A stretch of DNA of 64,000 bases from an uncultured Candidatus Saccharibacteria bacterium. GTDB taxonomy: Bacteria; Patescibacteriota; Doudnabacteria; UBA920. The notes under the pieces are model-generated. The model made no database searches, was not told the origin of the DNA, and saw only the letters and a list, made by a program, of their open reading frames with translations. The stretch lies in contig CAZHYL010000001.1 of the NCBI GenBank assembly GCA_964536745.1, positions 76,961-140,960 of the forward strand, in the 5' to 3' direction. The translations under genes and the position numbers were made by a program. Positions 5,379-46,212 of this stretch are shown in pieces; the stretch's first letter is position 1, and each line of letters opens with the position of its first letter.

Positions 5379-5472
<94 letters not shown>

Positions 5473-7500: not shown

Positions 7501-7588
7501 GGAGAGGTCGCATAGTGGTTTAGTGCAACGGTCTTGAAAACCGTCAGGTCTAAAAGCCTCGAGGGTTCGAATCCCTCCCTCTCCGCCA
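7501..7588 (+). tRNA. tRNA-Ser (anticodon UGA), long variable arm, encoded CCA
   Basis: 5' 22 nt and 3' ~28 nt identical to the tRNA-Ser(GCU) at 5379; anticodon loop cuUGAaa. Confidence 0.85.
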
Positions 7589-8424: not shown

Positions 8425-8499
8425 CTCCTTGTAGCTCAACGGATAGAGCGCAAGCCTCCGGAGCTTGAAATGTAGGTTCGATTCCTGCCAAGGAGACCA
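8425..8499 (+). tRNA. tRNA-Arg (anticodon CCG), encoded CCA
   Basis: Acceptor ctccttg/caaggag, D-arm gctc...gagc, anticodon loop cuCCGga, T-arm GGTTCGATTCC. Confidence 0.8.
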
Positions 8500-13521: not shown

Positions 13522-14811
13522 TTAAAAGTTTTTGATATCTTTGCAAATATCTGACATGGTCGAGAAATACTCTGTCCCCGTTGCCCAGTCTACTAAAGAA
13601 CCAGCGGCAGAAGCGATAGTACCTATTACACCAGTGCCTCCAAAAGCAGAAGCCACACTAGACTCAACGCAAATATAAAAGAGTAGCCCAGCTAAAAATA
13701 AACTTACAATTACAAACACCACAAAATCTACGAATACTAAAATTGCTAACTCCCACTTTCGAGCAAGCCCTTGAAATTTACCAGCATCTTTAAAAAAGAT
13801 CCCAATAATTGCATATATATTTAGCACTATTAACAAAGGCACACCAAAGATCCAACCAACCACACTAAAAGTCAAACCAATGGTTATCAATAACCAAATG
13901 AACATAAGAATCGACATGTAGGCTTTTTCGGCATGGAATTTGGCTTTCTTAAGATTGCCATTTTTCAATTCAAAAGCCATATCGATTGCATCACCAATCC
14001 CTAAACTGATAGCGATATTAAGTAATAAAGAGACCAGCAATCCTAATCCTAAGGTCTCTGGACCAGACGCAGCTCCTGCTGCTGCAATTCCTGTTTGAAG
14101 TGCCTTTACTCCTGTTGCCGCAGCCTTTGCACCTTTTGCAGCAGTTGCGGCTGTCTTAGCGGTCTTAGCTGCTTTTGCAGCTCTTGCAGCTGCTTTAGCT
14201 CTCTGAGCAACTGCTTTCGCTGCCTGGAACCCCTCTTTTAAATTCCCTGGCTTCAAGCCTTTTTGAAAACCTTTTTGGAAAGCTCTATTACCAATCTTAT
14301 CGCCCACTTTATCTGACAGGTATTTCCGAGCACGCTGCTTAGCCTCTTCTTTTACCTTTTCTCGATTCTCTGGCGTGTCACTTTTAAAAGCATTCTTATC
14401 GCCTAAGAATTTTTCACCTGCCCATTTGGTTGGCTTATTTCGAACAACCGCATTAGCTCGTTTGTATGCCCTACTTGCTTGATCTCGCAAGCCACCTCTT
14501 CTAGAATCACGATACTGATCTTGGAACTCACCATCTTTCATCCCTTCTTTATTCATAGAAGGATACTCGCTATCCTGAAAATCTGATACGACTCTACCAG
14601 AAGACTGGTAGCCATCATTTGGGTCATCTTGAAAAGGCTGACGAGGATTCACAGAATTATACGAATCGTCATCCGTTAAACCGGTATTATTGTAACTATC
14701 TCGGATATTCTGACCTGGTTCATAATCATTATTAACAGAACCTCCCCCTGCAATATTGTTTGGAGGAGGTCCAGAATCGGAGCCTCGGTTTCTTGTATCG
14801 TCTAGCAACAT
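13522..14811 (-). CDS. Polytopic membrane protein with a ~230-aa disordered D/N/G/Q/K-rich N-terminus and an Ala/Lys repeat; last gene of the T4SS-like operon
   Basis: Low-complexity N-terminal region, then AKAAARAAKAAKTAKTAATAAKGAKAAATGVKA, then at least four TM helices. Confidence 0.55.
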   Translation of the reverse strand: MLLDDTRNRGSDSGPPPNNIAGGGSVNNDYEPGQNIRDSYNNTGLTDDDSYNSVNPRQPFQDDPNDGYQSSGRVVSDFQDSEYPSMNKEGMKDGEFQDQYRDSRRGGLRDQASRAYKRANAVVRNKPTKWAGEKFLGDKNAFKSDTPENREKVKEEAKQRARKYLSDKVGDKIGNRAFQKGFQKGLKPGNLKEGFQAAKAVAQRAKAAARAAKAAKTAKTAATAAKGAKAAATGVKALQTGIAAAGAASGPETLGLGLLVSLLLNIAISLGIGDAIDMAFELKNGNLKKAKFHAEKAYMSILMFIWLLITIGLTFSVVGWIFGVPLLIVLNIYAIIGIFFKDAGKFQGLARKWELAILVFVDFVVFVIVSLFLAGLLFYICVESSVASAFGGTGVIGTIASAAGSLVDWATGTEYFSTMSDICKDIKNF

Positions 14812-14815
14812 TATG

Positions 14816-16660
14816 TTAGGTATTTAGCTCTTCTTTGCTTTGCTCTATTTCTAATAACTGCTTTGGATCGGTAGTAATAATTTGATCCTCGACATAAGAT
14901 GCATAAATCTTAATTGCTGCGTGCTTAAGACCTGCGAAGAATATGCCTTCACCAACATCACTTTCGAGTAATAAATACTTTTCCCCTTCAGTTAAGAAGA
15001 AAGTTTCGGCAACAACATCAATAGCGGCTGGACTTTGCTTCAACAGCAACTGAATCGAAGAGTTCGTAACAATTGGTTTACCGTAAGGACTAGCCATAAA
15101 ATCGGCCACATCTTGAGTGATTGTGGTTAGCCCAAGATAATATTTACGAGCACGTTTTGCTATACCAAACACGAATCGTGCGCTATCTTCATGTTGCATC
15201 ATAATCCAAGCTTCATCCAAAACCAAAATTCTTCTCTTAAGCTCACTCCTAACAACGTTCCAAATATGACCTAAAATAATGTACATTGCTATTGGTCGCA
15301 GCTGATCTTCCAAATCTCGGATAGAGAAAACTAAAAGTTGATTCTTTAACACAACGTTAGTTTGGTTATTAAGCAATCCAGCAAAAGTTCCTTCTGTGAA
15401 CTTGCCTAATCTTTGAGCCAAACCTTCTCCTCCTACCATTCCAGAGAGAATCTCGATTAAATCACTCATAATTGGCATTTCTGCTGTAGCAAAATCGCTC
15501 TGTTCTGTAATATCTTTCTTAGCATAAGTTTGCCAAAGAGCCTTATCTAAAATAGCTTCTTCGGTTGGGTCCAGCTTACCAAGTACTAATCCCATTAATC
15601 CGACTAAATTAATAATTGCGCTACGTAAAATATCTCCCTTATCTTCATCGTCCAAACCAATAGGTAAATCGAAAGGATTGATACGAAAATCGGAGTTCAA
15701 AGAAATATTTATATAAGTACCACCAACTGCCTCTGCTAGATGCTGATACTCATTTTCTGGATCAATAACAATTACTTCAATACCAACCATTAACGATCGC
15801 AAGATTTCTAATTTAATCGAGTAAGATTTTCCTGCACCGGATTTAGCAAACACTACGAAATTAGCATTTTCCATTTGGAATCTATCAAACAAGATCAAAC
15901 TATTGTTATGCCGATTAATTCCATACAATATCCCATCATTACCAGTTAAATCAGAAGATACAAATGGAAAAGTACTAGATAACGGGCTAGTGTTTAGATT
16001 ACTGGTTACATCTAACTCATCTAATGCAAGAGGAAGTGTAGAATTAAATCCAGACTCCACAGCCAACATCGCTCTTTTTGTTACCACTAACTTAGCACCT
16101 AATGCACTCTCTAGAACTTTTGAATTTTTATCTAACTCGTCTAAAGTATCTGAATACAAAGTGAAGTACAGTGCGAACCGGAAAAAATGTTCTACACCTT
16201 GCTGTAGCTGATCTCGCAATTCTTCTACGTCATGATACGCAGTTTCTAGTAATGGGTTTCTTGCCAAACCTTTTTCTTGTTCAATGGTGATTTGAGATCC
16301 GATCTCACCAATCTTACTCTTTAACTTCTTAAGTACCATCCCAGAATCGATTGGATAGATAAACATAGAAACATCTAAAGCACTTTCCGAATTGATTATA
16401 AATGATAGCCAATTAGATGATAAAAACCTTGGGTAGGCCAGCACAAAGAAACTACGGCCAAATTTGCCATTTAGTTCAAAATAAGAATTAGTGAACTTAA
16501 GTGAAGACGGCGCCAATAAATCTTTTAAAGTAGTAACACCTTCCCGATACTCTTTTTCTACTTCTGCCAACTTTTTGTCCGCAGATATTTCGCCTTTAAG
16601 ATGCTCGAGTTCGGCCTTCTTCTTATCTATTTCGCTTTTATCTAATGAAAATAAAGCCAT
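14816..16660 (-). CDS. virB4: VirB4/TrbE/CagE-family type IV secretion ATPase, C-terminal ATPase module
   Basis: Walker A FAKSGAGKSY, Walker B ILVLDEAW, 614 aa. The start ATG overlaps the stop of the upstream ORF (TAATG). Confidence 0.85.
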   Translation of the reverse strand: MALFSLDKSEIDKKKAELEHLKGEISADKKLAEVEKEYREGVTTLKDLLAPSSLKFTNSYFELNGKFGRSFFVLAYPRFLSSNWLSFIINSESALDVSMFIYPIDSGMVLKKLKSKIGEIGSQITIEQEKGLARNPLLETAYHDVEELRDQLQQGVEHFFRFALYFTLYSDTLDELDKNSKVLESALGAKLVVTKRAMLAVESGFNSTLPLALDELDVTSNLNTSPLSSTFPFVSSDLTGNDGILYGINRHNNSLILFDRFQMENANFVVFAKSGAGKSYSIKLEILRSLMVGIEVIVIDPENEYQHLAEAVGGTYINISLNSDFRINPFDLPIGLDDEDKGDILRSAIINLVGLMGLVLGKLDPTEEAILDKALWQTYAKKDITEQSDFATAEMPIMSDLIEILSGMVGGEGLAQRLGKFTEGTFAGLLNNQTNVVLKNQLLVFSIRDLEDQLRPIAMYIILGHIWNVVRSELKRRILVLDEAWIMMQHEDSARFVFGIAKRARKYYLGLTTITQDVADFMASPYGKPIVTNSSIQLLLKQSPAAIDVVAETFFLTEGEKYLLLESDVGEGIFFAGLKHAAIKIYASYVEDQIITTDPKQLLEIEQSKEELNT

Positions 16661-17349
16661 TATGTTTCTATGTCCTTGATAGTTACTTTAGTTAACTGTC
16701 CAGCGTCTATTGCTGGGCCAGAGGCAAAATTATAGGAATTATAGACTAATTCGATTAACTGATCTGTTTTCATTCTTACAACTCTTAAACCTGAGCTAGA
16801 TAATGCAGCCGATACAGTATTCGTCCGCTCATCTAATTGCTTTTTATAAGCTACAAAGTTAGCTTCACGGTCGGAAATTTCTTTCGTCTTTCCAGAGCCA
16901 AACCACTTACTAAAGATACTTGTTGCCGCAGGATTGATACTGGTATCAAATGGCACAATCACATAAAAATTCTTATTCATTACATTAGCCGATTCAACTA
17001 ACCTATCGATAAATTCGATGTACTCTTGTGTTTGCATCCGCATCAACTCGTTAGTCTGCTTAAGCATCATAACTTTTAGTTTGTCTGTATACTCTGCGAT
17101 ATCCATCTTCCGAGATTGCATTAAAATCTGGACATGAAATTCCAAAGAATTCACAAAACGTTGATAGCTATAAATTAAAGCATTTTGTTCTTCTTCACTC
17201 TTTAAATCAAAATTAGTACTAGACACAGCTAAAACAGCTCGTAAAGTACCATTATTCATTACGATTACGTCATCTCTAATTTCAGACAATTTCAAAAACT
17301 GTTGAGTAGGAGAGCCTATTTTCTTTTTTGTCTTTATTTCATCTGCCAT
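16660..17349 (-). CDS. VirB4 N-terminal (CagE_TrbE_VirB-type) domain encoded as a separate ORF
   Basis: DDVIVMNNGTLRAVLAVSSTNFDLKSEEEQNALIYSYQRFVNSLEFHVQILMQSRK matches the conserved VirB4 N-domain pattern (..kDGsl.avl.l.G..fe...deel......l...l..l......H....r). No TM helices; 229 aa. Confidence 0.6.
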   Translation of the reverse strand: MADEIKTKKKIGSPTQQFLKLSEIRDDVIVMNNGTLRAVLAVSSTNFDLKSEEEQNALIYSYQRFVNSLEFHVQILMQSRKMDIAEYTDKLKVMMLKQTNELMRMQTQEYIEFIDRLVESANVMNKNFYVIVPFDTSINPAATSIFSKWFGSGKTKEISDREANFVAYKKQLDERTNTVSAALSSSGLRVVRMKTDQLIELVYNSYNFASGPAIDAGQLTKVTIKDIET

Positions 17350-17352
17350 AAT

Positions 17353-17808
17353 TTATTTTTGGATTTCCCTGTTTTGTTTGATTCTATTTATTAGATCTAA
17401 CTCTTCGGATTGTTGCTGCTGCAATATATAATTCAATTCTTTTATCTTAACTGCCGTTTCTTTAGCATTCTTGGGAGCAACTTTCTCTTCTACTATTTTT
17501 GGTGCCACTTGCTCAAATTCATCTCGCCCTTCCTTGTGATAAACATAAACTTTTGGACCAAACAAAAACTGAACAAAATTCCCAGCACTAGCATAGAGAG
17601 GTCGCCCATTTAATTTCCCAAATGTCAAAGCCAAAGCTGGAACTCCAGTGATACAACCCACTGCTATAGTAGCTGGAATGTTCTTACTCATAACGTAAAT
17701 TACAAAAGTAAATACAGATGCGCCAAAAACGATTGCAAATTGCTTAAAAGTTAAGCCAGCAATAATTTTATCTTCAACGTCTGTAAATTGTGGGACTGGA
17801 AACTGCAT
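17353..17808 (-). CDS. VirB3/PrgI-like small membrane protein
   Basis: 151 aa with two hydrophobic helices near the N-terminus, located immediately upstream of VirB4 as VirB3 usually is. Confidence 0.5.
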   Translation of the reverse strand: MQFPVPQFTDVEDKIIAGLTFKQFAIVFGASVFTFVIYVMSKNIPATIAVGCITGVPALALTFGKLNGRPLYASAGNFVQFLFGPKVYVYHKEGRDEFEQVAPKIVEEKVAPKNAKETAVKIKELNYILQQQQSEELDLINRIKQNREIQK

Positions 17809-17834: not shown

Positions 17835-18674
17835 CTAAATTCGGTTAACTTTAAGAGAAAGTAACAAATCGGTGATAAACTCAAACTCTTCTTGAGATAA
17901 AGGTAATACCCCATTCACCCCGCCAGCCAATTTCTGTTTACCATACTCTAAATAGTCTTTATAAAGCGGGCTTTGCTCTATATTACTCAATACTTGAAAA
18001 TAACCATACTGGCTCACAAACCCGAGCAGCTTCTGATAAAACTCCGATCGATACGATCCAGATAACACCGCTGAAGTAACTCCAGCTACATCATTGATGC
18101 TTTGAATGCTTAAACCAGAATCTTCATCCCTACCCATTGGCCTAACTCTTGAAGTAATGGGTTGCTTAGCTACCTCGACGCTGACATCGGACTGCGGCGG
18201 TTCAGGAACAGGGCTTGGCTTAGCTACAGGAGGTACCGGAGATGATCTTCGGTGAGACAGCTGATTAGGCATATTGCTAATATGAGGCATCGCCGTTGCC
18301 TTCGTACTCATCAATGGCAAACTAGAACCAGATGGTTTTGGTGGAAGAGGTCCAGAGGATTGCATTGGTCTAAGTCCCTCTGTATTTGATCTCTGAACAG
18401 GAATAGGTGTTGATGGTCTTGCCACCGGAGGGGGCACAACTGGACGAGAAACTTGAGGAGGGCTCACAGGTTGTGGTTTAACAAATTGAGGTGAAGTAGT
18501 TGTTGAGTTAGTAGTCGAGGGTTGAGGGGTTTTTAAAATCTCTTCCAATTCTGCAATCTGCTTATCATTCATCAAGGATGTTAAAGCCAACCAATCTTGT
18601 TTTTCTTGAGAGGTTAGAATGCTGGAGGTTTGTACCAACTGTTTAATTTGTAAAAGTCTTGCTTGGTCTATCAT
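17835..18674 (-). CDS. Hypothetical proline-rich protein (T4SS-like operon)
   Basis: 279 aa, a central Pro/Ser/Thr/Val-rich low-complexity segment, no TM helix. Confidence 0.55.
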   Translation of the reverse strand: MIDQARLLQIKQLVQTSSILTSQEKQDWLALTSLMNDKQIAELEEILKTPQPSTTNSTTTSPQFVKPQPVSPPQVSRPVVPPPVARPSTPIPVQRSNTEGLRPMQSSGPLPPKPSGSSLPLMSTKATAMPHISNMPNQLSHRRSSPVPPVAKPSPVPEPPQSDVSVEVAKQPITSRVRPMGRDEDSGLSIQSINDVAGVTSAVLSGSYRSEFYQKLLGFVSQYGYFQVLSNIEQSPLYKDYLEYGKQKLAGGVNGVLPLSQEEFEFITDLLLSLKVNRI

Positions 18675-19571
18675 TTATTTCTTTTTGCGTTGTTTTAAGT
18701 CTTCTAATTTTGCTTGAATCTCTTCTTCTTGTTTTGACTTAATCGTTTCATCTATATCGACATTGGTTCCTTGATCGAAAACCAGACCACGCCTTGGTTG
18801 GGCTTTCAAATCCAAATCTTTTGCTAACGGAATCTTGAAATCAGAAACCGTTCGCTCTTGCTTCTGAGGAACTATTGGGGGTAAAGGCCCTTCAGCAACA
18901 GAAGTCACATCTTCTTCATCTATTCCCGAAAAAGCCATATTTATATCTAATTCAGAAATTTGCTCTGGGACATCTTTAGGATCTACAACCTCTGGCAACA
19001 TTTCCCACATCAAGACATTTCTATCACAAAAATTGTACAACTTAAATATGGATTGAAGTATGAACTTCTGATATGGATCTAAATTTTTTACATTTTCACC
19101 ATCATTAAAATATTTAACTAGACCTAAAGCATCGCTACCCAAACCTTTTGATGAGGCAAAAGATAGATAATCACTTAGCCAACTAGAAATAACAGGCGCG
19201 CCCTTTTTAGAAGAAACAACAATTTCTTTTCCTCCCACCGGTTCATTATTGGTGCTGATTATATTTTTAACCTGTTTACATAACTCGACCTCATCCGGAA
19301 TGAAATTATACTGTGCCAAATACTCCTCAAACTGCTCAGCTAAATCAAACCCTTCTATCTCATAAGCGAGTAGTAAAGATTGCTTCATTAAGCTAGCAAG
19401 TTGTGTCGCGGATAAGCTATTCATTCTAATATAGCTTAACTGAATCTTTAACTCATTAGTTAAGGGTTGTCCTGTTTCATCTACTCCAGCAGTCAACACC
19501 TTGATCGCTAAGTACTGATCCTTTGTATTAAGAATATCTTGCAGCTTTATAATTTGATTTTGAGCGCTCAT
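18675..19571 (-). CDS. Hypothetical protein (T4SS-like operon)
   Basis: 298 aa, no TM helix; its start overlaps the stop of the upstream giant ORF (ATGA). Confidence 0.55.
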   Translation of the reverse strand: MSAQNQIIKLQDILNTKDQYLAIKVLTAGVDETGQPLTNELKIQLSYIRMNSLSATQLASLMKQSLLLAYEIEGFDLAEQFEEYLAQYNFIPDEVELCKQVKNIISTNNEPVGGKEIVVSSKKGAPVISSWLSDYLSFASSKGLGSDALGLVKYFNDGENVKNLDPYQKFILQSIFKLYNFCDRNVLMWEMLPEVVDPKDVPEQISELDINMAFSGIDEEDVTSVAEGPLPPIVPQKQERTVSDFKIPLAKDLDLKAQPRRGLVFDQGTNVDIDETIKSKQEEEIQAKLEDLKQRKKK

Positions 19572-22500
19572 ATTTTACCTCTTGCTTTGCCTAAGGAAGC
19601 GACAACGTCACCACCTAAACCTGTTAACGCACCAGCAGCATGCTTCTTTAATATTTCTGCAGCTGTGTAAGAACTCATCCTACTCTCCAGCTGTGCCAAA
19701 GCTTTTTTGTTACCTGAAAGCTTTTTAAGTTCTTCGACCTCGCCAGAAATGAATTCATTGTCACCACTTTCATTTTCGTAAAAGATTTCGTTTGGCTTCT
19801 TTTCCCAAACTTTTTTCTTTCCAGCGGTTTTAGATAACTTCTCCATCTGTTCTGAGCGGGAATTCCAATTCACCACACCCTGTGAATTAATATTTGTAGC
19901 TTTACCTAATGCCCGATTACCATTTTGCATATTTAAATTGGACAACTCGCTTGCCATTTGATTCCTGACAACAACTGGGACTCTACCAAATTTATCCGAC
20001 ATGAATTTTTTAAACCCATCGATATTATTCTTAAACCCATGCTCCGAAAGTAGATCTTTAAATCCTCCTTCTTTCGCGATTTTCTTGGCAATTGCCGAAG
20101 CTTGAGCTAGATTATTATTTTTCATGGCATTGTTAAACGCAGCTCTTAATGAGTCGACATCATCAACGCCTTCAAACTTTTTACCTTCTTCATGCTCACT
20201 CGCAAGTCTATCTGTTTGCTGTTGCTGACTTGCTGGGAATTGACGTTCTGCAACAATTTTCTCCATCCCAGCAAGTACTGTTGCTCGATCATTCGCATCC
20301 CACTTACTAACACCTAAATCAGTCCTTAAGTTATCATCCGCTGTTAGATCGCCTTGTAACTTGTCTATATCTGCTTGGATTACCTCAGCGTTAATCTCTA
20401 GAGCCTTATCCGCTTCCAGTACTGATGGCATAACCACAGCAGTAGACGGGACTGCCGTCGCCGGTAAAGCCTTAAGTATATTATCAATATTTTCTTTCGA
20501 AGTTTCGAGTGGGTTTCTTCGCGACTCATAGCCAGCCCGAATACTATCTATTTCAGTCTGTAGTTCTGTACCCCTTTGATTATTACCAGCTGCCAAAGCC
20601 TTAGCTCTTTGTTCATTCAACGGTGCTAGTTCTGTTTCTTCTGCCTTGTTTAATTCGTTAATATCCTCACCTAGACGTTTTTGATACACTTCTGCTTGTG
20701 CTTTGGTAATCTGATCACTGCCCAATCTTCGATAACTCGCGATGTCCGATAAGTCTGTCCTGCCTTGAGAAATTTTATCGCCGTTCTGAATCCTTTCATC
20801 ATCTGTTAACAGGCCTGCAAATCTATCTGACCTCCTCTGGACAGCTTTTGCACTATTACCTGTTAATTTCCAGGCTAACATTTTTGCTGCCTGTACCTTA
20901 TTTAGACCAGCCTGCTTGGCATAATCATCAAGTGGCTTTCTGGCTTTTTCTAAACGCTCCATTTGTGCTTTCTTTGGCTCAGACCACAAGCGATCCTTCA
21001 ATTTCTTACCCGTAATCATTGGTTGAGCGAGGGCAGACACACCAGCCGCCAATCGTGGATTATTCTCTTTTAGTCTATTAGATATCGAGTCTGCTGCATT
21101 ATCTTTAGCCCACATTCCAAGAGCTTTTGGACCTTTCCTAGTTGTCCAGTCCATACCCTTCTTAGCAAAGTCAACTACTTGTTTCGCGCCAGCGCCACCA
21201 AATGAAAGAGCAAACTTCATACCAATAAACAAGAACAACAAAACAATGAAATGAGAAATCACTGTTAATGCAAACTCGGTTAACTCTCCTGCGAACGTAC
21301 CTGTAGATTTAATCACATCTCCCATTCTTCCAGAGAAAGTAACTGCTACAAGAGCTGTAATATTTAAAAAGAAGGCAAGAATAGGTACTGTGAATGCATA
21401 CTTCAAAAAGTGACTCCACCACTGATTAGCATAAGTTCTTGTTTCTGGCAGGATCCTTCCAACATAAGCCAGAGGCGACAGCATATACAATACCCACAGA
21501 GCTACCAGCCGAATAAACATAAAAGCGATTAAAGCAACGAATGACCAAAACGCAGCCCCTGCAAGCACCCACAAAGCGATCGGTTTGAATAAATCACTGG
21601 CACTACCATCCACAGTAAAGGTATTCCCACTATCAGTTACACTATACTCGCCACTCCTAAAAGTTTTGATTGGATCTACCATTAACTTTTGCCCAAGAGC
21701 TTCTACAACTTTACTCTTAGCGGGTAAAAATTGAGACTGAACTGTGTCTGCGATACCAACAATACCTTGACCAATCACCAAACTAAAGTTAACTAACAAT
21801 GCCATTAACACTAAAGTGACAATAAACCCACGAGACTTTGAAGCATCTTCTTGCTGGAATAGAATTCTAAGTCCCATAACCAGCAGAGCGATAATGAAAG
21901 CAATATTGGAAATATTTCTAATAATAACCCAGCCTGGATAAATTACATTTACAAACTCGTCTCTGTATGGCTGAATTTTTAACAGTGCGTTCAATACAGG
22001 AACCAAAATGTACGCAAAAATATAGTACATTATGGACGTCATCAATAGAATTATGTACGCGATTACTTTTCGAAGAAAAGCAAATAGATTACTTGCAATT
22101 CCACCGTCTTGAAGCTCTGAACTCTTGGCCTCTGCTGTGACAGTATCCGCAAATCCATATTTCGCAAAGTTTGGATCAGAGTCACACTTACTCTTTTGAT
22201 CTTCTGGAACATCCGCCTTACAAGCTGTTTTAATCTCGTCTAGAGTACGATAAACCTCAACAGTAAACTTAGCTTCGCTATTATATAAAACATATACATT
22301 GGTATTTTGACCAATCCCTACTTTTGCAGAAAAACCTTTTATAAAAGCAACAACCTTAAACTCATTAGTAGCGATGGGTTTACCTGCTTCAGCTTTATCA
22401 TTCCTATTACGAAGCCAAGCAGAACTATTTAAGACAGGGCTAAACTGATCTGGTAAGGGTTTTTCCGTACCGTTACCGTTAGTCAAACCTTTATCTGATT

Positions 22501-23587
22501 CAAAAAATGCTTTCGAACAATCGGTACTAAAATAGGCTGGGGCGCAAGACTCTAAATTTTTAACCGGAGTATCAGCATAATTAAACCCTAAATTTGAACC
22601 CTTATATGCAGGTTCTAAATCATAATTGAACCAAGAATTATCCTTTTTTGGTAATGTAAAAGTATCGTTGACAGTCAATTGCAAAGCAGGATCTTCGGAT
22701 GTCCACTTCATGTAGATCGGATCCGGTCCATTATTCCCGCTAAAGGTCATGGAGTTATCTGAAAGCAATACTCTGTATTTTGAACGCAAACCTTTTCCCG
22801 CACTGTTTGCAGTTACAGTCATCCCAATTTTTGTATAATCAACCCCCGTCTTAGCACCGGTACCAACAGGCCCCCCTGCTGTTACGCCATCGGGTAGTGG
22901 TGGAAGTTGAGTTGGCTGGTCACCCTGTATAGCTTGATCACTATAAGAAATGCCAAGAATTCCCGGGAACTTATAGGAAGTCCAAGATTGTCCGTAATAT
23001 ACATATACAGAAGTGTTAATCAAACAAGGCTGCTTATCACAAACTGTTGAATTTGAAGTGGGAGCATTAGGGAAAAACGACTTCACTGTAGCAGGAACCC
23101 TTGCCGCATAGCCATACTCAGTGATTTTAGTCTTATCTGATGAATCTGCCACAGTATAAAACTGGGCTGGAACTTCCAGTGGTTTATCAGATTTTACAGT
23201 CCTTGTTACTACGTCACCCCTTGCTGATAAAGTCTGTATAGTTGCATAAGCGTAAATATAAAAATTATGCTTTTGTTTGTTATCTTTACAATACTTTGCA
23301 AGCTCTAATGTATAAGAGTCTTTTATATCAAAAGCAACAGCAAACTGAATATTAAACTGTTCATTCCAATTCAATTTCTTTCTGTCAGAGATAGGTCCAG
23401 TGGGAATGGATTTCCAACCGCTACTATCTAATTCACAAGAAGAAACAGCAGCATTAACCGTAGGGGTAATGGCAAAAACAGGCATAAACAAAGAAGCTAT
23501 GATAACACTTAACAGTGCTACCATGCTTCTTTTCTTCAAATTTTGAGTCAGAAATTTAAATAATTTTGATATTGGTTTCAAAGCCAC
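19568..23587 (-). CDS. Giant VirB6/TrbL-like polytopic membrane protein (1339 aa) with a signal peptide, a large N-terminal extracellular domain and a ~540-aa hydrophilic coiled-coil C-terminal extension
   Basis: Signal/TM at aa ~20-45, a ~450-aa extracytoplasmic domain, at least six TM helices between aa ~500-790 in a VirB6-like arrangement, then a charged coiled-coil tail. Confidence 0.6.
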   Translation of the reverse strand: MALKPISKLFKFLTQNLKKRSMVALLSVIIASLFMPVFAITPTVNAAVSSCELDSSGWKSIPTGPISDRKKLNWNEQFNIQFAVAFDIKDSYTLELAKYCKDNKQKHNFYIYAYATIQTLSARGDVVTRTVKSDKPLEVPAQFYTVADSSDKTKITEYGYAARVPATVKSFFPNAPTSNSTVCDKQPCLINTSVYVYYGQSWTSYKFPGILGISYSDQAIQGDQPTQLPPLPDGVTAGGPVGTGAKTGVDYTKIGMTVTANSAGKGLRSKYRVLLSDNSMTFSGNNGPDPIYMKWTSEDPALQLTVNDTFTLPKKDNSWFNYDLEPAYKGSNLGFNYADTPVKNLESCAPAYFSTDCSKAFFESDKGLTNGNGTEKPLPDQFSPVLNSSAWLRNRNDKAEAGKPIATNEFKVVAFIKGFSAKVGIGQNTNVYVLYNSEAKFTVEVYRTLDEIKTACKADVPEDQKSKCDSDPNFAKYGFADTVTAEAKSSELQDGGIASNLFAFLRKVIAYIILLMTSIMYYIFAYILVPVLNALLKIQPYRDEFVNVIYPGWVIIRNISNIAFIIALLVMGLRILFQQEDASKSRGFIVTLVLMALLVNFSLVIGQGIVGIADTVQSQFLPAKSKVVEALGQKLMVDPIKTFRSGEYSVTDSGNTFTVDGSASDLFKPIALWVLAGAAFWSFVALIAFMFIRLVALWVLYMLSPLAYVGRILPETRTYANQWWSHFLKYAFTVPILAFFLNITALVAVTFSGRMGDVIKSTGTFAGELTEFALTVISHFIVLLFLFIGMKFALSFGGAGAKQVVDFAKKGMDWTTRKGPKALGMWAKDNAADSISNRLKENNPRLAAGVSALAQPMITGKKLKDRLWSEPKKAQMERLEKARKPLDDYAKQAGLNKVQAAKMLAWKLTGNSAKAVQRRSDRFAGLLTDDERIQNGDKISQGRTDLSDIASYRRLGSDQITKAQAEVYQKRLGEDINELNKAEETELAPLNEQRAKALAAGNNQRGTELQTEIDSIRAGYESRRNPLETSKENIDNILKALPATAVPSTAVVMPSVLEADKALEINAEVIQADIDKLQGDLTADDNLRTDLGVSKWDANDRATVLAGMEKIVAERQFPASQQQQTDRLASEHEEGKKFEGVDDVDSLRAAFNNAMKNNNLAQASAIAKKIAKEGGFKDLLSEHGFKNNIDGFKKFMSDKFGRVPVVVRNQMASELSNLNMQNGNRALGKATNINSQGVVNWNSRSEQMEKLSKTAGKKKVWEKKPNEIFYENESGDNEFISGEVEELKKLSGNKKALAQLESRMSSYTAAEILKKHAAGALTGLGGDVVASLGKARGKI

Positions 23588-45823: not shown

Positions 45824-46212
45824 GGGGATGCCGGATTTTGACAGGACTTTACAATCGTTTTATATGCAAGACGAGCCAGCTTGCAAGCTCGATAATCTTA
45901 CAAGCATCAATATGTGCTAACGCATACAAAAAGGTCGTTGCTGCATTTCAAAATGCGCAACTTGCACCTGCTTTCGCTTAACATTTAAGCAAAGCCCAGC
46001 CTCTAGCTTTTCTTCGCGCTAGAACCAGCTTGGATTATTAGAAGATATAATTTTGTGATCTGATATACATTACAAAATCGAAAATTTGTATATCGCCTAG
46101 CATTCTTCGTTGTCCGTTGGTTAGGGTGCTAGTACTATAACGGACTAATCTTGTGAATAATGGAACGGTTAGTTAGTTTTGGACGCGGGTTTAACTCCCG
46201 CCATCTCCACCA
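45824..46212 (+). ncRNA. ssrA: tmRNA (SsrA), ~389 nt
   Basis: 5' GGGGAUGCCGGAUUUUGACAGGAC pairs with the 3' CAUCUCC-A-CCA, including a G3:U70 wobble (Ala identity). T-arm gcggg-TTTAACT-cccgc. Internal tag reading frame ...AAFQNAQLAPAFA-TAA. smpB lies 2.5 kb away. Confidence 0.8.

Follow-up and report, generated by a model that had tools for sequence, protein, structure and literature searches.

An operon of Patescibacteria very probably encodes VirB4 as two polypeptides, a TrsD-like protein and a VirB4-family ATPase

VirB4 is the only ATPase that every type IV secretion system shares. Its N-terminal domain, with limits as given in PMC9259494, spans about 400 residues in TrwK, and in the R388 structure this domain is wrapped by VirB3 and mediates VirB4 dimerisation (PMC9259494). 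A shorter VirB4 is found in Staphylococcus aureus on pGO1, a subclass of MPF-FATA, where trsC encodes a VirB3-like protein, trsD a protein of 227 aa and trsE an N-terminally short VirB4-like ATPase of 672 aa. In Patescibacteria, a 2025 survey reports TrsD homologues, remotely homologous to the N-terminus of VirB4, in 2,221 assemblies, and in 1,664 cases they adjoin virB4 (PMC12102498). [quoted passage not shown] TrsD is named as a component in these papers, and VirB4 is not termed 'split' in their passages on the secretion system (PMC12102498; PMC10633639).

[quoted passage not shown] VirB4 in this lineage very probably consists of two polypeptides made from adjacent genes of one operon, a TrsD-like protein of 229 aa and an ATPase of 614 aa. 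The operon is a tightly packed gene row on the minus strand, headed by the gene for a large VirB6/TrbL-like membrane protein (1339 aa; 19568..23587). Its product matched Pfam PF04610 TrbL with E 1.5e-05 and 25.3 bits, slightly below the cut-off of 25.9. Two genes for proteins of 298 and 279 aa (17835..19571, minus strand) lie between this gene and that of a PrgI/VirB3-like small membrane protein; their products gave no match in a Pfam scan, and the order of the pair is kept in assemblies L083-L089. The PrgI-like gene (151 aa; 17353..17808, minus strand) has a product matching Pfam PF12666 PrgI (E 4.5e-08, 34 bits, cut-off 27) and occupies the position of trsC in pGO1 and of PrgI before the fused VirB4 in L081. 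After a gap of 3 nt follows the TrsD-like gene (229 aa, ATG start; 16660..17349, minus strand), and then the VirB4-family ATPase gene (614 aa, ATG start; 14816..16660, minus strand), identified by family models and PDB matches. The next gene, 4 nt further on (429 aa; 13522..14811, minus strand), encodes a product that has a low-complexity stretch rich in Ala and Lys and is hydrophobic in its C-terminal half, and for which a Pfam scan gave no match; in other assemblies, too, this gene is located downstream of the ATPase gene. Both VirB3- and VirB6-like inner-membrane partners are thus found in the row of the ATPase gene, and the TrsD-like gene is placed between the VirB3-like and the ATPase genes. 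The junctions from 23587 to 13522 measure, in order, -4, 0, 26, 3, -1 and 4 nt, and the tight junction between the 229-aa and 614-aa genes is not special within the operon.

The 614-aa protein scores above the curated threshold of a whole-protein family, as it matched the NCBIfam model NF045971 of CD1110-family VirB4 with 347.6 bits (cut-off 325), residues 19-577 corresponding to positions 161-728 of 752. Residues 43-564 correspond to positions 213-724 of TIGR00929, and the score of 113 bits is below the cut-off of 643, as expected because the first module is missing. Its P-loop ATPase domain is homologous to the VirB4 C-terminal domain: PDB 4AG5, which is that domain, matches residues 237-596 (E 1.8e-43), and Pfam matches are P-loop_TraG, AAA_10 and DUF87. 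The Walker A motif AKSGAGKS (residues 272-279; 15824..15847, minus strand) and the Walker B motif ILVLDE (residues 478-483; 15212..15229, minus strand) can both be read from the sequence, as the sequence-only reading had stated. Additionally, residues 141-563 match residues 302-735 of TrwK. The N-terminal domain is not complete in this polypeptide, where some 200 residues from the start of a full-length VirB4 are missing, and the missing part is found in the upstream ORF. By these alignments, the 614-aa protein comprises the complete ATPase domain and about the latter half of the N-terminal domain, and the break falls within the N-terminal domain and not at the border of the ATPase domain.

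In the VirB4 N-terminal domain, the 229-aa protein corresponds to about the first 200 residues. Family models and fused homologues both connect it to this part of VirB4, with residues 25-195 corresponding to positions 19-182 of the NCBIfam model TIGR00929 VirB4_CagE and residues 16-144 to positions 2-131 of the NCBIfam CD1110 VirB4 model. It contains the peptide VIVMNNGTLRAVLAVSSTNFDLKSEEEQNALIY, which had been picked out earlier as the conserved N-terminal pattern. Against the TrsD/TraD model NF041427 it reached E 2.6e-06 and 27.4 bits, which is below the cut-off of 200, and a profile comparison with TrsD of pGO1 was weak (hhalign E 0.012). It is a remote relative of the TrsD/TraD family and no curated member of it. 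PF26593 TraC-like is the precomputed database label of the 229-aa protein, of all its relatives and of the N-terminus of fused VirB4, while a local Pfam scan (hmmscan) of the ORF returned nothing even at E 10, PF26593 included. No PDB entry was matched when the N-domain alignment was used in a sequence-profile search. When the model of the 229-aa protein alone (pLDDT 67) was searched with Foldseek, 11 of the 13 top matches were TrwK chains, but with E of only 0.05-0.4. The division into an N-domain protein and an ATPase, as first proposed from the sequence, is therefore not supported as worded: the 229-aa protein is only the first module of the N-domain, and the 614-aa protein keeps about the second half of the N-domain besides the ATPase.

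Together, the two ORFs tile VirB4: on a VirB4 profile of 792 positions, they cover 19-182 and 213-724. Natural fused homologues in other Patescibacteria, of which there are at least 117 clusters, are collinear with both. In the fused protein P0368 (797 aa), residues 8-211 correspond to the 229-aa ORF (39% identity, E 3e-44) and residues 226-796 to the 614-aa ORF (53% identity), and in P0356 (898 aa) the two ORFs are found at residues 5-230 (35% identity, E 4e-46) and 323-890. P0368 is a real gene, next after PrgI on its own contig, and its AF2 model matched full-length TrwK/VirB4 with a Foldseek E of 1e-26 and a TM of 0.61 over about 820 alignment columns. The check proposed with the sequence-only reading, that both ORFs should align along full-length VirB4, is thereby answered by the VirB4 models as well as by P0368 and P0356. 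Two ATPase relatives of 804-807 aa, P0227 and P0240, were also considered as fusions and rejected, as their extension is a Pro/Glu-rich N-terminal stretch without an N-domain.

This tiling bears on whether the 614-aa protein is already a complete VirB4, with the 229-aa protein an additional paralogue of the VirB4 N-terminus or an accessory protein unrelated to it. Such a role might be suggested by the treatment of TrsD as a separate component in the literature (PMC12102498), and by a weak internal similarity that links the N-ORF with the beginning of the ATPase ORF. However, on the full-length models the 614-aa protein begins only at about position 161-213 and is without what the N-ORF supplies, and fused homologues hold each part once and in the same order. 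We therefore consider an extra copy or accessory very unlikely.

The fission might lie exactly between two ancient copies, in tandem, of a single module of about 190 residues that together make up the VirB4 N-terminal domain, a tentative idea that we hold to be rather doubtful. In the AF2 model of P0368, the 11-element order E E E H E H H E H E H is found in residues 14-207 and 239-391 alike. BLASTP and hhalign agree on the register of the modules, but neither reaches significance (E 0.31 and 2; P 0.07), and profile-profile alignment did not detect a significant internal duplication (E 0.49; P 0.072). If this is true, one copy of the ~190-residue module would stand by itself as the TrsD-like protein. 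Separation, as in the window, in pGO1-type plasmids and in many Patescibacteria, versus fusion, as in Colwellbacteria-type Patescibacteria and most other type IV secretion systems, would then be a recurrent and tolerated switch.

The two genes meet in the sequence TAATG (16658..16662, minus strand), where the stop of the 229-aa gene and the start of the 614-aa gene have A16660 in common; on the minus strand the junction reads ...GAA ACA TAATG GCT... The overlap of one nucleotide, correctly described in the sequence-only reading, is also the trace that a single-base indel could leave, and an assembly artefact does exist in the family: P0409 (600 aa, L093), the only 'short' VirB4 of the fused clade, was considered as an independent fission and rejected because of a run of N in its scaffold. 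Nevertheless, there is next to no probability that a sequencing or assembly indel at 16660 broke a single VirB4 gene, as the exact gene pair and the overlap are identical in 10 independent assemblies, made from different samples with different pipelines (ENA, Logan). Furthermore, all 78 related loci with both halves are split, and their junction sequences and frames differ.

The same loci allow a comparison of the split across species. The database holds 646 clusters of ~228-aa proteins and hundreds of ~614-aa proteins, and among the best 150 representatives at 50% identity, 148 are standalone proteins. In 78/78 species loci holding both halves, the first gene ends in a stop and the second has a start of its own, so the same split is present throughout the orthologues that the earlier reading had proposed to inspect. 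The junctions are TAATG in 7 loci, ATGA in 2 and gaps of 1-10 nt in 25, while longer gaps measure 11-50 nt in 12 loci, 51-200 nt in 12 and more than 200 nt in 20, with a maximum of about 500 nt. An extra small gene is found between the halves in 16 loci.

Since the ORFs overlap in different frames, like some frameshift genes, a programmed ribosomal frameshift or readthrough could be thought to produce a single fused VirB4. This is extremely unlikely. Before its ATG, the ATPase frame has just 9 open codons, beyond which a TAA at 16690-16688 closes it, and a slippery heptamer of the type X XXY YYZ was not found in this 9-codon stretch. Among relatives, all three relative frames of the second gene are used (0, +1 and +2 in 21, 26 and 31 loci, respectively), in-frame stops, 50-500 nt or another gene often lie between the halves, and the ATPase gene always starts at its own ATG aligned with residue 1. 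The conserved slippery site, fixed frame relation and long open overlap of a programmed frameshift are thus missing.

Where reduced genomes contain split genes, these are often pseudogenes, and a recently broken VirB4 with one or both halves non-functional must therefore be weighed against two working genes. Across the 78 species, both halves are full-length and keep their motifs, with identities of 50-87% for the N-ORF and 70-96% for the ATPase. Synonymous sites are saturated, so that a dN/dS ratio is not computable; dN values are 0.09-0.24 in the N-ORF and 0.04-0.11 in the ATPase. Both Walker motifs are intact, and the TrsD homologue of S. epibionticum is reported to be essential (PMC12102498). 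Both genes are intact and under purifying selection, and decay can be set aside with near certainty. Collectively, the tiling, the 78/78 loci and the 10 assemblies agree with the earlier proposal of a genuine two-cistron VirB4, as opposed to an indel, a frameshift or a pseudogene.

The earlier argument for this proposal, that a clean stop/start coincidence is more typical of a genuine two-cistron arrangement, does not carry it, as an overlap is found in just 9/78 relatives. In the window genome, the 1-nt stop/start overlap may lead to termination-reinitiation coupling. A weak Shine-Dalgarno-like AAGGA (16673..16677, minus strand) is located 12 nt before the ATPase ATG, inside the end of the upstream gene, and might act as a ribosome-binding site. 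Among relatives whose junctions are tight, several have GGAGG 7-10 nt upstream and others have no such motif. The TAATG junction is not conserved among related species, and neither is overlap or near-abutment in general, with gaps above 10 nt in 44/78 orthologous loci. Given overlaps in 9/78 loci, gaps above 50 nt in 32/78 and an inserted gene in 16, coupling is possible but neither conserved nor required. The translational coupling first proposed is thus plausible for this genome and does not extend to its relatives; if present, it would follow locally from the close packing of the genes and would not be an essential feature.

At the protein level, the two products would reassemble non-covalently into a VirB4-like subunit. 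By analogy with the contacts between VirB3 and the VirB4 N-terminal domain in R388, the TrsD-like piece would be placed beside the PrgI/VirB3-like membrane protein. The split also gives structural biologists a natural cut site within the N-terminal domain. Annotators should not label the 229-aa gene 'hypothetical' or the 614-aa gene 'truncated'.

Compared with full-length VirB4, i.e., TrwK of R388 and the fused VirB4 of Colwellbacteria/Parcubacteria-type Patescibacteria, the two window proteins cover the same sequence span and have the same fold by homology. The full-length forms are single polypeptides of 775-823 aa, whereas the window has two, and a linker of about 13 residues in the fused form is replaced by a stop and a restart. 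The 19-aa tail of the 229-aa ORF and the Lys/Glu-rich leader of about 40 aa in the window ATPase have no counterpart in the fused form. VirB3-VirB4 fusion proteins occur in some conjugative systems. They are the opposite event, fusion as compared to fission in the window, and show how fluid gene boundaries around the module of VirB3 and the VirB4 N-terminus are in evolution; for Patescibacteria, the survey reports none (PMC12102498).

The gene order of the window is that of trsC-trsD-trsE in pGO1/pSK41. Residue 47 of the window ATPase aligns with residue 36 of TrsE (24% identity, E 4e-37), and therefore the N-termini coincide. The similarity between the N-ORF and TrsD is marginal, so both a shared origin and convergence of the split are possible. 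The systems differ in that pGO1 is a conjugative plasmid with relaxase and coupling protein and has a trsD-trsE gap of 14 nt, while the window is a chromosomal locus in which the pair overlaps. TraC/TraD of the pELF plasmid were considered as related proteins and rejected, as they are unrelated. In Southlakia epibionticum, the described part of the locus (SEML1_0006-0019) clusters PrgI/VirB3, the TrsD homologue, VirB4 and VirB6 as the window does, although that strain is a cultured member of Saccharimonadia and the window belongs to a Doudnabacteria-like lineage. As TrsD adjoining VirB4 is already described for pGO1 and, in the passages on TrsD, for Patescibacteria (PMC12102498), the arrangement is genuine but known, and since the TrsD-VirB4 pairing is already catalogued, the window leaves the current picture unchanged.

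As the sequence-only reading had described, the ORF list and the sequence place two minus-strand genes side by side, a TrsD-like gene of 229 aa (16660-17349, the N-ORF) and a VirB4-family gene of 614 aa (14816-16660, the ATPase ORF), joined by TAATG (16662->16658), in which the TAA stop and the ATG start have one base in common. The N-terminal peptide quoted in that reading was found in the ORFs, as were Walker A (AKSGAGKS, ATPase ORF residues 272-279) and Walker B (ILVLDE, residues 478-483). Successive genes of the minus-strand row are spaced by -4, 0, 26, 3, -1 and 4 nt. The junction is thus locally unexceptional, and its overlap fits the tight packing of the operon.

The row is headed by a VirB6/TrbL-like gene (1339 aa). 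Between it and the PrgI/VirB3-like gene (17353-17808, minus strand) upstream of the N-ORF are two conserved minus-strand genes of 298 aa and 279 aa (17835-19571), the latter Pro-rich, for which the Pfam scan gave no match. Nor did the scan give one for the minus-strand 429-aa ORF (13522-14811) that follows the ATPase gene after 4 nt; in this ORF, several hydrophobic segments come after a repeat region rich in Ala and Lys (AKAAKTAKTAATAAKGAKAAATG...), and its position is kept in other assemblies. With RecG, RadA, KsgA and UvrD-like genes flanking the T4SS row, the context is chromosomal and not plasmid. The plus strand carries a tmRNA gene (45824-46212, tag ANAYKKVVAAFQNAQLAPAFA) and three tRNA genes at 5379-5472, 7501-7588 and 8425-8499 (Ser-GCT, Ser-TGA, Arg-CCG). 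In the lineage with fused VirB4 (loci L081:544-2937 and L093), the T4SS genes are at most a few kb away from rnpA, yidC and dnaA, which agrees with a published note that the system is often near the replication origin; no dnaA-type domain was found among the fifteen window ORFs scanned with Pfam.

The 614-aa product belongs to the VirB4 family of ATPases. It matches P-loop_TraG, AAA_10 and DUF87 in Pfam, passes the curated cut-off of the NCBIfam CD1110-family VirB4 model (347.6 vs 325 bits), and aligns with the VirB4 C-terminal domain structure 4AG5 (E 1.8e-43). Its alignment begins late in full-length models, at position 161 of 752 (CD1110) and 213 of 792 (TIGR00929), and the N-ORF covers the missing part (positions 2-131 and 19-182, respectively). 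The N-ORF matches the TrsD/TraD family model weakly (E 2.6e-06) and, because it falls below the curated threshold (27 vs 200 bits), is classed as TrsD-like and kept outside that NCBIfam family. The database's precomputed Pfam annotation assigns PF26593 (TraC-like) to its product, whereas our local Pfam-A scan gave no match to PF26593 even at E 10; this discrepancy looks like a difference in library version and not biology.

The exact 229-aa protein, followed by a 614-aa gene whose start codon takes in the final base of the preceding stop, is present in 10 assemblies from different samples and pipelines, which rules out a sequencing indel at the junction. A scan with one genome per species gave 80 related loci, 78 of which contain both halves, and in all 78 a stop codon closes the first gene while the second begins at a start codon of its own. 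Among these loci the junction is TAATG in 7 and ATGA in 2, with gaps of 1-10 nt in 25, 11-50 nt in 12, 51-200 nt in 12 and more than 200 nt in 20; the second gene lies in frame 0, +1 or +2 relative to the first in 21, 26 and 31 loci. TAA-T-ATG in the closest relatives is one base from the window's junction. A programmed frameshift is excluded by these varying frames and gaps together with the short open frame, as the ATPase frame is open for just 9 codons ahead of its ATG and this stretch of the window holds no slippery heptamer. The two-cistron arrangement proposed from the sequence was thus correct. Purifying selection acts on both genes: compared with nine relatives, the N-ORF has a dN of 0.09-0.24 and the ATPase ORF one of 0.04-0.11, with synonymous sites saturated.

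The same TrsD-like/virB4 junction is repeatedly occupied in different species. In 16 of the 78 loci, a small same-strand gene lies in a spacer of about 430-525 nt (L044:5706-6101, L048:5752-6123, L069:3472-3879 and 13 further loci, none in the window). Eight encode 23S_rRNA_IVP / four-helix-bundle proteins (PF05635) and eight PDDEXK_3 proteins (PF13366), two families typical of 23S rRNA intervening sequences.

As a Rosetta-stone test, 1.8 billion representatives were searched with a profile built from the 229-aa family. This gave 2,959 relatives, and among the best 150 of these, 148 are standalone (157-443 aa) and 2 are long. In the first fused homologue, P0368 (797 aa), residues 8-211 align with the N-ORF (39% identity, E 3e-44) and residues 226-796 with the ATPase ORF (53% identity); in the second, P0356 (898 aa), the N-ORF aligns at 5-230 and the ATPase ORF at 323-890. 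The P0368 gene is real and uninterrupted and follows PrgI on its contig. Its fused relatives number at least 117, are 775-807 aa long and come from Colwellbacteria or Parcubacteria where named. The AF2 model of P0368, with a mean pLDDT of 67, matches full-length TrwK, the VirB4 of R388 (Foldseek E 1e-26, TM 0.61, ~820 alignment columns). Given these collinear alignments, and as the family models agree, the two ORFs tile a complete VirB4, once each and in order. A short protein of the fused clade, P0409, was rejected as a split VirB4 because it reflects a scaffold gap, and it exemplifies how an artefact looks in this family.

Of the fused form, only a ~13-residue linker is replaced: in its stead the N-ORF ends in a 19-aa tail and the ATPase ORF opens with a Lys/Glu-rich leader of ~40 aa. 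In the relatives P0227 and P0240, the ATPase has a Pro/Glu-rich low-complexity N-terminal extension of ~190 aa, which occupies the place the N-domain would have in a fusion; at L054:5688-7207, a ~1.4 kb open frame lies upstream of the conserved ATPase start.

The initial division into an N-domain ORF and an ATPase ORF holds as regards two genes, while its boundary was slightly misplaced. TrwK has its N-terminal domain at residues 15-400 and its C-terminal ATPase domain at 400-823 (PMC9259494). The ATPase ORF aligns with TrwK 302-735 through its residues 141-563 and with the 4AG5 domain through residues 237-596; hence the 614-aa protein retains ~200 residues of the N-terminal domain. These alignments put the break in the middle of the N-terminal domain and not at its border with the ATPase; extrapolation places it close to TrwK residue ~200. 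In the P0368 model, residues 14-207 (the N-ORF, 16660-17349) and 239-391 (the start of the ATPase ORF, about 15950-16550) are alike in the order of 11 secondary-structure elements. Sequence comparisons of the two halves pick the same register, with statistics that are not significant. The VirB4 N-terminal domain may have arisen by an old tandem duplication, with the present break falling between its copies.

Translational coupling, as first proposed, does not hold generally: junctions vary across the 78 loci, so it is not a conserved feature, nor is it required. The window's overlap and a weak AAGGA 12 nt upstream of the ATPase start could permit termination-reinitiation in this genome; relatives cope with spacers of hundreds of bases. 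One operon would supply both proteins, which would then come together as a VirB4-like subunit. The VirB4 N-terminal domain of R388 has VirB3 wrapped around it and also forms the VirB4 dimer interface (PMC9259494). Because of this contact, the PrgI/VirB3-like protein, whose gene lies 3 nt upstream, is the likely partner of the TrsD-like module.

The gene order is the same as on the Staphylococcus aureus plasmid pGO1, with trsC (VirB3-like), trsD (227 aa) and trsE (672 aa), and TrsE and the window's ATPase share a starting point (ATPase ORF residue 47 aligns with TrsE residue 36). Quinonero-Coronel et al. (2025, PMC12102498) describe TrsD as the most abundant Patescibacteria T4SS component, remotely homologous to the N-terminal portion of VirB4 and essential in S. 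epibionticum, with 1,664 of 2,272 homologues adjoining virB4. Since this pairing is published there, the gene pair is already catalogued and its arrangement known. Our additions to the known picture are modest: they show explicitly that the halves are complementary and not redundant, that the phylum has both fused and split VirB4, and that the junction between the halves is evolutionarily unconstrained.
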